This document shows positions 1,619 to 45,290 of a stretch of DNA of 47,063 bases, in pieces. The stretch covers positions 1 through 47,063 of the forward strand of contig CAMVRX010000001.1 in assembly GCA_947170005.1 (NCBI GenBank), read 5' to 3'. How positions within the stretch are numbered: the stretch's first letter is position 1; each line of letters opens with the position of its first letter. The position numbers and the translations under genes were made by a program. The DNA is from an uncultured Elusimicrobium sp. (GTDB taxonomy: Bacteria; Elusimicrobiota; Elusimicrobia; Elusimicrobiales; Elusimicrobiaceae). The notes under the pieces are model-generated. The model worked only from the letters and a program-made list of their open reading frames with translations, had not been told where the DNA came from and did not search any database.

Positions 1619-1754
1619 GGCAACAATTTGCCATATTTGAGCATCTTTGCACCGACTTGCCACTCGCAGTACCTGTCAGTGCAGCTTCGGGCAACTTACG
1701 GTGCAAAGCTGTCTCAAATCTGACAAATCAGCCTACTAAATATTTTACGCGGTG
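1619..1754. repeat. Dispersed long imperfect palindrome (REP/MITE-like), copy 1
   Basis: Arms atttgagcatctttgcaccg / cggtgcaaagctgtctcaaat; alignable with 23969..24126. Confidence 0.7.
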
Positions 1755-1874
1755 AAGGGACAGACGGCACTTGCCCATCAAACTAGGCTAGATTTTGAAA
1801 AATCATCTTATCTTCTATTTTGCTCGGTGATGTTGCGGACGGCCAAGGCCTAGACACATTGGGTCCAAAGGCCC

Positions 1875-3027: not shown

Positions 3028-3236
3028 AAAAACGGCTGTCCTCTATGAGCCTTCTCAAGTGTCTCAGCGACAACAGCCGCGGTCTCCCGTTTTTACACGG
3101 GAAACACTCGGTACAACCAGCTGTACGGGCCGGTTGTACCTCATATCGGCTGTCTTTGGACTTGAGAAGGATTTTGGGGTTTCCAAAATACATTCCGTAT
3201 ACTTTCTACACGGTTCCAAAAACAGATCAAATTGTC
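3028..3236 (-). ncRNA. Pilin leader attenuator-like structured RNA, copy E1
   Basis: acaatttgatctgtttttgga ... tccaaagacagccg ... cggctgtt ... gacagccg-ttttt; P1 ccttctcaagt/acttgagaagg; TAGAAT upstream. Confidence 0.75.
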
Positions 3237-12242: not shown

Positions 12243-12824
12243 TTAATATAACCAATCTTCGGAATTGTCGTTTATAGAGTTTTCTTTCCCTGTTTCGCTG
12301 CGGCAGATAGAAACACCTATATTTTTATTGTAAGCTTTACAATAAATTTTCCCCTGGGAATTACTATGATTCAAATAAATTATGTACCCTAAAAACAAGG
12401 AATTATCATTGTAGAGCCGGCATCCTACCTGTGCATTACTGGGGCCTTTATTTAAGCTGCAATTTCCCCAATTATAGTCATAAGTTGTTTGTGTTCCACT
12501 AGTAGTGCTAGAAAGAGGGGTAGGCAATGAAACATCCAGGTTTTCTATGCTGTCGGTATATTCTTCATTTGCTAAGTAGTAAATTTCTTCGGCCTTAGCA
12601 ATAGTGTGGGCAAGTGTTTTGGCTTGAGTAAACCGAGTTTTCCATACTGCTTTTTGATATTGCGGCACAGCTACCGCGGCTAAGATGCCGATAATCAGTA
12701 CCACGACAAGTAGTTCAATGAGCGTAAAGGCAGATTTATGCCCCTTAGCCGGGGCATTGTCAGGCAGTGCCTGACCTACCCAATTGATTTGCGTGAAACC
12801 CCGCCGGGTGTTGTTATTTTGCAT
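12243..12824 (-). CDS. Type IV pilin-like protein 2 (extended leader peptide)
   Basis: [12 protein letters not shown]...[27 protein letters not shown]; AAGGA SD supports the start at 12824. Confidence 0.9.
   Translation of the reverse strand: MQNNNTRRGFTQINWVGQALPDNAPAKGHKSAFTLIELLVVVLIIGILAAVAVPQYQKAVWKTRFTQAKTLAHTIAKAEEIYYLANEEYTDSIENLDVSLPTPLSSTTSGTQTTYDYNWGNCSLNKGPSNAQVGCRLYNDNSLFLGYIIYLNHSNSQGKIYCKAYNKNIGVSICRSETGKENSINDNSEDWLY
12759..12779 (-). repeat. GTAG-type REP-like palindrome inside the pilin 2 leader peptide
   Basis: Minus strand GTAG-GTCAGGC-ACT-GCCTGAC. Confidence 0.5.
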
Positions 12825-12858
12825 TTTGTTTTTCCTTTTATGTTTGCCGAGCCCAAAC

Positions 12859-13078
12859 AAAAACGGCTGACTTGTTTGGACTAACACGAGTAAATCCAAC
12901 GCAAAACAGCCGTAGTTTACTGTCCTTGCGGACAGTAAACACTCGACACAAAATCCCGGGTTTGCAAGCCGTTATTTTGTGTCTAAAACAGCTGTTTTTA
13001 GACTCGTGTTATGTCTTTAGTTGCTTAAAGACGTATTGTGCCCCCTAGGCACAATTCCAAAAACAGTATCAAATTGTA
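12859..13078 (-). ncRNA. Pilin leader attenuator-like RNA, copy E2
   Basis: tacaatttgatactgtttttgga; P1 taacacgagt/actcgtgtta; P4 gtttactgtcc-gcaa-ggacagtaaac; cagccg-ttttt. Confidence 0.75.
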
Positions 13079-23968: not shown

Positions 23969-24126
23969 GGCAACAATTTTCCAAATTTGGTTTATTTTGC
24001 AGTGACTTGTGCCTCACGTACTTGCCGCACTTTGTGCGGTCCGGTGGACGTACGCTACGGCCCAACTTTTCCCTGCAAACTAAACTCAAATTTGAAAAAT
24101 CAGCTTACTTTCAGTTTTACCCGGTG
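23969..24126. repeat. Dispersed long imperfect palindrome (REP/MITE-like), copy 2
   Basis: ggcaacaattt.cca.atttg ... ctcaaat.tga.aaatcagc.tact ... ttttac.cggtg shared with 1619..1754. Confidence 0.7.
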
Positions 24127-24250
24127 CTTGGGGAAATACTGGCATAAACTACAGGCTTGAGGATAAATCAGGGTACTGACTATTTTACCCGGTGTTTGGG
24201 GAAGTACTGGCACAAGCTACAGGCTTAGGGATAAATTAGGGTACTGACTG
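24115..24250. repeat. Imperfect tandem duplication, 2 x 68 bp
   Basis: ttttacccggtg.ttgggga..tactggca...ctacaggctt...gataaat.agggtactgact at 24115 and 24183. Confidence 0.9.
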
Positions 24251-29814: not shown

Positions 29815-30324
29815 TTAAGATTCCCTCTCATCGTAAACTGTAAAACCATGGGTTTCTAAACCTTTGCATACTTTGTAGCCAATATCATCGAAAGCTTCGC
29901 AGTATGTATCACTGTTCCTTGTTCCTCCCAGAAAAGTTCCTTGAATGTTTATCTTATAGGTGGAAGAATCTGCTGTTCCACACGTGCTATCTGTATTGTT
30001 GGAACGCCAAGCAGTAATATCTGGGCCAGCAAACTCATACTGGAAATATTTTGTACAGAAGACCGTTTCTTCCTCACTCCAAATTCCGCTTGCCCAATCT
30101 ACAATATTTTTTGGGATATTTTCGTCCGAAACGCTATGTTCTAACTGCCATAGTTCATACGCATCCCGTGCATTTTTTAACATCAATACAGCCTCGGCTG
30201 CGCGGCTTTTTTCTACAGCTACTTGGTATTGTGGTACGGCTACGGCTGCCAAAATACCGATAATCAGCACCACTACCAACAGTTCGATGAGCGTGAAACC
30301 CCGCCGGGTGTTTTTTGATTTCAT
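29815..30324 (-). CDS. Type IV pilin-like protein 4
   Basis: MKSKNTRRG|FTLIELL; AAGGAG SD supports the start at 30324. Confidence 0.93.
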   Translation of the reverse strand: MKSKNTRRGFTLIELLVVVLIIGILAAVAVPQYQVAVEKSRAAEAVLMLKNARDAYELWQLEHSVSDENIPKNIVDWASGIWSEEETVFCTKYFQYEFAGPDITAWRSNNTDSTCGTADSSTYKINIQGTFLGGTRNSDTYCEAFDDIGYKVCKGLETHGFTVYDERES

Positions 30325-30370
30325 TTTATACTCCTTATTTTTGAGTTTTATTAACCCGTTTAGGAAGTAT

Positions 30371-30580
30371 AAAAAGACGGCCACTATACGAAGAGTTCAT
30401 CTCACTGTCCTCACGTATAACAGCCGGGTTTCCCGCCTAAGCGGGAAACACTCGGCACAGACAGGGCTATAGTCCCCGGCTGCGCCTAAATCGGCTGTTT
30501 TTGGAGTGAGATGAAACTTTTGGGTTCCCAAAAGTGACCCGTACACTTTCTATACGGTTCCAAAAACAGATCAAATTGTA
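30371..30580 (-). ncRNA. Pilin leader attenuator-like RNA, copy E4
   Basis: ctgtttttgga/tccaaaaacag perfect A:B; P1 ttcatctcact/agtgagatgaa; terminator cggctgttatacg...cgtatagtggccg-tcttttt; TGnTAGAAT upstream. Confidence 0.78.
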
Positions 30581-30629
30581 TTTTCCTACATTCCTATTCT
30601 AACATAATTTTTTCTTCATTGAGTGCAAT

Positions 30630-34004: not shown

Positions 34005-34207
34005 TACAATTTGATCTGTTTTTGGAAGCGTTTTAGAAACGCATACCTTTTTAGGTGATAGCAACGCCAAAAACAACTGCCTTAGGCATAAAGAGATGGA
34101 CCTTCGAAACCCATTTCTTTATGCTCAATGTTTATCGTTTCGTGCGGTAAACTACGGCTGTTGTATGTATGGTTTGTTGCTATCCCATAGGTGCAGTAGC
34201 CGTTTTT
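34005..34207 (+). ncRNA. Pilin leader attenuator-like RNA, copy E5
   Basis: tacaatttgatctgtttttgga; P1 gatagcaac/gttgctatc; terminator cggctgttgtat...gtgcagtagccg-ttttt. Confidence 0.75.
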
Positions 34208-45123: not shown

Positions 45124-45290
45124 AAAAAGGCGATCTCATTTTAAGGATATTCGAACGCTTAAAACAAAATCGCCTTCATATCTGAAAGATATGAAAAACG
45201 ACTTCATTTTTAGCTCGAATATCGACTAACAAAAGTTAGTCCGTGCCGCTCTAAACGGCCCTAAAAATCAAGTCCATCAAAAATTTTGTA
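45124..45290 (-). ncRNA. Divergent pilin leader attenuator-like RNA, copy E8
   Basis: A:B gacttgatttttag/ctaaaaatgaagtc; P1 gatattcgagc/gttcgaatatc; terminator ggcgattttgttttaag...cttaaaatgagatcgcc-ttttt. Confidence 0.65.

Follow-up and report, generated by a model that had tools for sequence, protein, structure and literature searches.

Leaders with gene-specific barcode helices and a predicted terminator/antiterminator switch upstream of pilin-like genes in Elusimicrobiaceae

The E4 locus and the leader family

The window is the whole 47,063-nt stretch of DNA analysed here, from an uncultured Elusimicrobium sp. (contig CAMVRX010000001.1, positions 1 to 47,063). It belongs to a 1.07 Mb assembly that is 73% complete (G000). 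Sequencing runs carrying the E4 locus are from bovine gut or gut metagenomes, where labelled, and look-alike leaders are found in records of Elusimicrobiaceae, Elusimicrobium or Avelusimicrobium. At E4, a structured leader precedes a type IV pilin-like gene; leaders of the same family lie at E1–E3 and E5–E8. The features are:

30596..30604, minus strand: E4 extended -10-like box (TG-n-TAGAAT), read by eye and not called by the promoter scanner
30570..30581, minus strand: E4 conserved 5' leader segment, partner of E in read-through RNA, from sequence and predicted pairing
30559..30569, minus strand: E4 A strand, the anti-antiterminator, pairing from folding with B first and, as predicted, with E after read-through
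30539..30557, minus strand: E4 hairpin H1, from folding
30516..30535, minus strand: E4 hairpin H2, from folding
30505..30515, minus strand: E4 P1a, the 5' barcode strand, left open while about 107 nt are transcribed up to its partner
30492..30504, minus strand: E4 B strand, partner of A on the OFF path and of C plus the terminator 5' arm in the ON fold
30454..30491, minus strand: E4 long hairpin P3 with junction
30467..30473, minus strand: E4 P3 apical loop with the 6-nt palindrome CUAUAG, a predicted self-kissing site
30428..30449, minus strand: E4 hairpin H4
30407..30427, minus strand: E4 C strand and terminator 5' arm
30396..30406, minus strand: E4 P1b, the 3' barcode strand, terminator loop in the OFF fold
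30369..30395, minus strand: E4 terminator 3' arm, D strand and U tract (interrupted by one C)
30350..30366, minus strand: E4 E strand, complementary to the leader 5' end and to A and predicted to lock read-through mRNA in the ON fold (duplex -13.8 kcal/mol)
29815..30324, minus strand: type IV pilin-like gene downstream of the E4 leader, 169 aa (Pfam N_methyl, E 4e-09)
3029..3225, minus strand: leader E1, loop palindrome GUAC, barcode recurring in two genera
12860..13066, minus strand: leader E2, palindrome UUGCAA
24335..24528, plus strand: leader E3, palindrome UAAUUA
34016..34206, plus strand: leader E5, palindrome UUCGAA
38563..38741, plus strand: leader E6, GACG tetraloop
43705..43910, minus strand: leader E7, palindrome UUAUAA
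45105..45285, minus strand: leader E8, a short variant that keeps P1 (45213-45223 with 45146-45156)

Read from the sequence, the overall leader order is A-H1-H2-P1a-B-P3-H4-C-P1b-D-U tract-E, with the promoter 5' of A. Of 253 leaders, 202 have a promoter-like site in the 90 nt that precede A (83±7 when shuffled), and the E4 leader has a folding z of -6.5. Across the whole window, Rfam covariance models gave nothing but two tRNAs at gathering score; the E4 region matched no family (best E 2.2). We found no description of the leader family, or of self-templated attenuation, in the open-licence literature, a search that left most subscription papers outside. E8 departs from the common plan: one plain hairpin replaces P3 and H4, the palindromic arm is absent and the profile search missed the leader. 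It is a natural control for the role of that arm.

G000 holds 125 pilin-like starts and 93 leader copies, of which 87 lie upstream of a pilin motif, five of a contig end and one of another gene. Copy number reaches 181 matches in G073, a near-whole sequence of 1.80 Mb that is 95% complete; within a single genus, leader pattern matches vary between 0 and 128, counts of 1–2 being near control level. Helices were parsed with Watson-Crick and G-U pairs only. Three of the 93 G000 hits stayed unparsed, and two of the remaining 90 were misparsed and left out of the loop statistics. Elsewhere, 12 of the 181 G073 hits were dropped together with six that had P1 below 8 bp, as were 5 of 89 hits in other genomes and six unparsed hits at G139 loci.

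A covariance model of the leader matched 44 of 45 sampled genomes of its own family and 10 of 44 from family f13, which belongs to another class; the other 61 sampled genomes gave 0 matches. Among 27 f13 leaders, P1 is perfect in 24, has one mismatch in one and has unmatched halves in two. The same palindrome types recur in their P3 loops. In f13 and in low-copy relatives, the cargo includes glycosyl- and acyltransferases, sulfatase-like and outer-membrane proteins, DNA methylases, GmrSD and a dynamin-like GTPase. The leader-controlled genes, with pilins and RgpF among them, are typical contingency genes.

Some atypical matches were seen. In G202, leaders L430 and L445 have unmatched P1 halves, and a match to the P1a of L430 lies at the start of contig C59; either misassembly or real recombination between leaders may be responsible. 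A one-contig genome of genus g14 (G115) has a single diverged copy (L420:1501-1680) with P1, a CUAG loop palindrome and a much shorter terminator. Weak opposite-strand profile hits (L409:1507-1556, L407, L411, L412, L454) fall over the leader 5' part or the terminator as a result of the leader's internal symmetry and were not counted.

The P1 helix and the folding path

A preliminary description of this DNA listed a P1 strand pair for each of the eight leaders. All eight pairs are present in the window, on the pilin-coding strand. Its statement that P1 is fully paired and differs from leader to leader extends to the genome, at a level well above chance: P1 is perfect in 90/90 parsed G000 copies, with 90 distinct 5' strands and lengths of 7–15 bp (mean 10.3). 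Judged by energy, the best partner of each strand is its own in all 90 leaders (-13.7 vs -1.9 kcal/mol); judged by the longest perfect run with G-U allowed, it is strictly best in 56 and best or tied in 73. P1 reaches at least 8 bp in 371 of 381 distinct leaders pooled from G000 and related genomes and in 163 of 169 parsed G073 leaders, and measures 8–13 bp in 84/84 parsed leaders of other genomes. Its G-U share is the lowest of any helix (2.8% vs 5–20%). In all, 306 barcode clusters were counted among 361 leaders.

In the H4 consensus of the RNAalifold alignment, G-U cells far outnumber A-C cells (49 vs 2), and the structure is therefore selected on the RNA. Similar figures for A:B (75 vs 6) and B:C (88 vs 13) are partly forced by strand composition and are not relied on.

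The RNAalifold consensus contains A:B and the terminator with P1b in its apical loop, as proposed earlier for the OFF fold, where P1b is on average 66% unpaired in that loop. P1a is indeed mostly unpaired in the nascent RNA (0.74, vs 0.36 for the whole RNA). Folding energies do not include kinetics or tertiary contacts. When 172 leaders were folded at growing lengths, A:B formed first in 171, the alternative folds were nearly tied once C appeared, and the ON fold (P1 and B:C) won after P1b in 167 by a margin of 9.3 kcal/mol. At full length, 137 of the 172 were OFF (margin 3.4 kcal/mol).

Blocking P1a in silico tips the nascent RNA towards termination. Just before D, 109 of 120 sampled leaders were ON, and the terminator arm formed in 68/120 with P1a blocked; five bases later it formed in 118 of 120, vs 77 unblocked. 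These results make P1 the deciding helix and P1a the exposed target, so the idea that P1 matters for switching holds up within folding models. The modelling predicts a leader that switches between terminator and antiterminator, with P1 as the outer part of a zipper-type antiterminator. A loop-loop contact nucleating the switch, also suggested in the preliminary description, is not needed in cis: pairing of the nascent 3' strand can advance along B and on into P1a.

A further strand, E, lies 10–55 nt past the terminator and is complementary to the leader 5' end and A. Its duplex (-12.1 kcal/mol) is stronger than with shuffled sequence (-7.5) or the next window (-7.1), and its AATTG anchor sits 18–28 nt from D in 131 of the 132 leaders having AATTG. 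In folding, the terminated RNA was OFF in 201 of 253 leaders; the read-through RNA was ON in 183 of 253, a figure that fell to 113 once E was shuffled. E2 and E7 are among the leaders in which E is weak, and the G-U excess of E equals that of the shuffled control. Because E lies past the decision point, the fold of the finished RNA is suggested to matter. E could also be a DNA-level terminal repeat of a mobile cassette.

Barcode identity, loop palindromes and candidate partners

P1 sequences are almost never shared within a genome. Across 254 leaders with 36 genome labels, a P1b 9-mer was common to 0 of 5,548 within-genome pairs vs 33 of 26,583 between-genome pairs (6.9 expected). For seven other variable elements, sharing within genomes ran at 0.6–1.6 times the between-genome rate. 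G073 had one shared 9-mer among 13,203 pairs, a recent duplicate: L270 and L271 (C11 and C25, first 430 bases) are a duplicated leader and pilin 5' end, 96% identical over 427 nt, at two loci with different promoters. This is the only identical within-genome barcode pair found, in assemblies whose fragmentation may hide more.

Between genomes, barcodes persist. Sixteen of 90 G000 barcodes recur in G073 (0.5 by chance). Of five genomes from two genera, four contain the E1 barcode as a single inverted pair, and the fifth has one arm of it. Cargo can differ as well: a barcode that stands before a pilin in one species stands before unrelated proteins in other species. Barcode and pilin type are not tied: nine scorable barcode-sharing pairs had a C-terminal score of 36.8 against a background median of 36, and this candidate was dropped. 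At seven loci syntenic on both flanks between G000 and G008, the barcode was common at 0/7; these loci hold different leaders whose barcodes occur elsewhere, and leader-pilin cassettes have been reshuffled between species.

This distribution, unique within genomes and frozen between them, fits the earlier proposal that P1 insulates paralogous leaders from one another. P1 behaves like an identity tag and is likely a self-address. Cis pairing explains less well the stasis across genera together with near-total uniqueness within genomes. A frozen P1 also follows from strict cis pairing (the 2.8% G-U), and a cis model would likewise leave P1 untouched when paralogues exchange parts of their leaders. 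The barcodes are not optimised for orthogonality: strong cross-pairs fall mildly short of random, at 54 vs 82±14 and 259 vs 289±19, and barcodes of one genome resemble each other more than shuffled sequences do (81 vs 36 pairs with at least 8 matches). Paralogous barcodes are visibly related and diverge stepwise, and leaders sharing a palindrome are no more distinct in P1.

Separately, E1 (window 3072-3163, minus strand) and a leader on G000 C17 have an identical 92-nt tract between P1 strands with different barcodes; G073 has an 81-nt case. Such tracts suggest gene conversion between leaders.

The other use proposed for the barcodes, as addresses read by trans-acting RNAs or an array that select which pilin is expressed, found no counterpart in the genomes searched. 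Extra copies of P1 words numbered 78 in G000 (108±20 expected) and 452 in G073 (457±44), with no cluster in either. No third copy of a conserved barcode is conserved in five genomes, and orphan copies of A, B, C, D, arrays and P1 complements are at chance in G000 and G073. P1 compared with parts of other leaders gave 122 scattered 8-nt hits with no region standing out, as a raw count. Antisense promoter-like sites (124/247 vs 132±8) show no overall excess; a single 10-nt bin, some 40 nt beyond the terminator, contains 47 of these hits. Exact-word searches of this kind would miss a partner whose seed is short or relies on G-U pairs. With unique self-addresses, each leader would switch on its own, which is not mutual exclusion.

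Selection of the pilin by barcode complements on separate small RNAs, on an array or on a cis-antisense RNA is quite improbable. A third partner would impose barcodes that are letter-identical across species, as observed, and the 47-hit antisense bin also counts in its favour; extra copies at chance without clustering, no conserved third copy and no antisense promoter excess count against it, and an antisense RNA would need no palindromic loop.

That loop is the apical loop of P3, which is self-complementary in 84 of 88 G000 leaders vs 41.7±4.5 in loop shuffles; counted over distinct loop strings, 71 of 84 are palindromic, vs 34.6±4.2. Palindromes in other loops (H1 15/88, H2 11/81, H4 13/88, P1b 29/88) are at or near their nulls, those of H1 being somewhat above (15 vs 6.3). 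In the pooled set, 342 of 380 P3 loops have a palindrome of at least 4 nt, built on 13 different 4-nt cores, and 38 have none; GACG loops make up 6 of 21 non-palindromic exceptions. In 253 of the 342, the centre of the palindrome is displaced from the stem axis by +0.5 nt, which rules out a fold-back origin, and the 13 unrelated cores rule out a DNA-binding or methylation site.

A second copy of the core occurs within its own leader in only 7 of 172 cases. A 4-nt core cannot pair within its own loop and a cis copy is rare, which makes a second molecule of the same RNA the likely partner. In 23 of 49 barcode lineages the core was swapped for another palindrome or lost, and the palindrome is retained in leaders from another class of the phylum. 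On sequence grounds, the P3 loop bears the hallmark of a kissing loop of the dimerisation initiation site (DIS) type, namely a palindrome that is displayed in a hairpin loop and survives changes of sequence, with the dimer itself predicted. In the part of the source available, palindromic and GACG loops are described as loop-loop dimer contacts of retroviral RNA, and HIV-1 kissing as requiring central G-C pairs in the palindrome (PMC5874298). The commonest palindromes here, UAAUUA and UUAUAA, are A/U-only; by analogy with the HIV-1 requirement, this would count against a kissing dimer.

Explanations and comparison with known systems

The account that we put forward, tentatively, is that a leader's own terminated transcript recognises nascent copies by a palindrome kiss and a private barcode and templates their OFF fold, giving independent, heritable phase variation by RNA only. 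Self-recognition as such, whether repressing or activating, is the part we lean towards. We infer that dimers form in the cell, that docking represses, and that each gene has an ON/OFF state that is inherited.

The steps would be as follows. A:B forms first. The lengthening 3' strand would next pair progressively along B and on into P1a, leaving the gene ON by default; were P1a not available, the terminator would win. Terminated RNA would settle in the OFF fold, where the palindrome and both P1 strands would be open to pairing, P1b on a stable hairpin. It would kiss a nascent copy through the palindromic loop once P3 is made, and the terminator loop (P1b) of the docked RNA would capture the nascent P1a before the nascent P1b appears. 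Capture would force termination and yield more terminated RNA, and the gene would keep itself off. Read-through RNA would be locked ON by A:E with P1 hidden; with P1 hidden and E as a lock, an ON gene would make little repressor. The palindrome would define a docking class and the barcode an identity, allowing at least 100 surface genes to vary independently without DNA change. Against self-repression, terminated RNAs might cancel one another out by mutual pairing; E8 does without the palindromic arm, and two of 27 distant leaders have unmatched P1 halves.

A cis-only zipper attenuator, with one global trigger (a c-di-GMP-like metabolite or a protein) acting on the conserved A/B/C strands, is somewhat less likely and is the nearest competitor. 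Under it, P1 would be an outer antiterminator helix frozen by the cost of mismatches, paralogues would differ by age, and the palindromic loop would be a generic dimerisation or tertiary contact. Folding has P1 needed in cis anyway, weak orthogonality and stepwise barcode divergence are as such a model would have them, and GGDEF genes are found in 5/5 genomes. The layout is also that of the conjugation attenuator cATT of plasmid pLS20, for which the available part of the paper proposes a protein or counter-transcript trigger (PMC13401043). Palindrome swaps (23/49 lineages), the usual lack of a cis partner (present in 7/172) and the E lock would be left unexplained by a cis-only attenuator. Also weighing against it, the junction bases are variable for an aptamer, Rfam has no match for the leader, and the 4/5 genomes with a NusG match show a single NusG without paralogue. 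Restriction-modification systems among the regulated genes fit one metabolite poorly. Counts of 0–128 within a genus imply many duplications, yet cross-genus barcodes are almost never shared within a genome.

Self-recognition could also run in the opposite direction, a docked copy activating its own gene, which we consider improbable. Terminated P1a would capture nascent P1b and so prevent closure of the terminator, or the free 3' terminator arm of the ON mRNA would block the nascent 5' arm. The palindrome, barcode and E evidence apply equally, and terminated RNA leaves P1a accessible as well (0.56 unpaired). Folding already predicts the leader to be ON by default in cis, which lessens the need for an activator, and nascent P1b is open only briefly before the terminator closes, vs about 107 nt for P1a.

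A DNA-level element, with the leaders as inversion or recombination sites or as a MITE-like cassette with A and E as terminal repeats, is the reading to which we give hardly any credence: leaders are shuffled between loci across species, the 5' end and E form an imperfect terminal inverted repeat and two leaders in G202 look chimeric, but G-U lies far above A-C in stems without another partner (H4, 49 vs 2), inverted leaders upstream of pilin starts number 0/125, a flanking direct repeat is absent in 114/134, and E4, whose leader is identical in contigs of three other studies, has no strand-changing joint listed, though contigs drop rare variants. Leader mobility may hold as well without being the switch. 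A strain-level leader swap at E4 was ruled out, the leader being identical in X2, X4 and X5, and a metagenome scan for the E4 locus gave 11 hits, one of them a distant homologue of the neighbouring gene, with no leader.

Known bacterial phase variation of large gene families works by DNA inversion, repeat slippage, gene conversion, methylation or proteins. If self-templated attenuation is real, the RNA of each gene would itself carry specificity and memory, and surface antigens would vary by a new route; it would account for how a 1.8 Mb genome (G073) manages about 190 pilin-like genes. It would name the trigger for this leader family and suggest one for zipper-type attenuators generally, and the 306 barcode clusters would be a ready set of orthogonal transcription regulators. 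Were the cis-only attenuator alone true, the leaders would be a new, uncatalogued form of zipper attenuator. A terminated leader RNA acting in trans has a precedent in SreA of Listeria.

The comparisons that follow concern the portions of each paper available to us. In cATT of the B. subtilis plasmid pLS20, read-through is the default, an oligonucleotide that breaks the antiterminator causes termination, and the trigger is given as unknown (PMC13401043). Like cATT, the leaders have a mutually exclusive terminator and antiterminator in a 5' leader (in silico, from 172 leaders and the consensus), an upstream strand that pairs with the terminator 5' stem and loop and extends a central structure (B:C and P1 here), and a competing upstream helix of near-equal energy, with default ON predicted in 167/172 (PMC13401043). 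Unlike cATT, which is a single copy before conAn1 of a conjugation operon, they precede pilin, surface and defence genes and number as many as 181 in a genome, every one with a loop-pairing strand of its own (PMC13401043). By layout, they further differ in a three-way junction centre, a palindromic loop and a downstream lock; the main text of the cATT paper contains none of the terms 'palindrom', 'in trans' or 'Elusimicrob' (PMC13401043).

As in pT181 attenuation, a 5' leader that reads through by default would terminate on RNA binding via a loop, with specificity set by loops; here this behaviour is predicted (PMC3753616). pT181 uses a separate antisense RNA, whereas sequence searches found none here and the predicted trigger is the sense terminated leader; the paper's engineered set is 7 x 7, and natural sets of at least 100 independent members are not described in the portion available (PMC3753616). 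The leaders thus belong neither with cATT, by context, nor with pT181, by its separate antisense RNA. The P3 loops resemble the HIV-1 SL1 and MuLV GACG DIS in having a 4–6 nt palindrome with unpaired flanks in a hairpin loop, GACG loops included; viral palindromes are few, GC-rich and serve packaging, whereas the leaders have 13 cores, often A/U-rich, and a predicted dimerisation (PMC5874298). GraL is likewise a prematurely terminated leader with a second life as a regulator, a role that is predicted here (PMC6829880).

Other features vary at pilin loci of G000. Among its leaderless pilin starts, 21 of 54 have a poly-T tract of 11–12 inside the promoter, and a TTGAC box followed by 11–12 T occurs at 29 sites (25 with 12 T and 4 with 11; e.g. 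C21:2347, C34:2362 and C85:3374, all on the plus strand). These promoters are likely a slipped-strand phase-variable family and so a second route of phase variation, which fits pilins being switched one by one. In 33 of the 93 leader-controlled genes, the pilin motif begins more than 15 residues into the frame. Many of these genes carry in-frame, repeat-like inserts of about 15–100 codons between the start and GFTLIELL, made of recurring blocks and resembling coding MITEs within the leader peptide; examples are at window 12243-12829 (the E2 pilin) and on contigs C9, C12 and C2. A separate family of 60–70 nt repeats (D4, D5, D12) forms tandem pairs near pilin loci (window 1696-1831 and 24068-24229) and also lies upstream of pilins with poly-T promoters.
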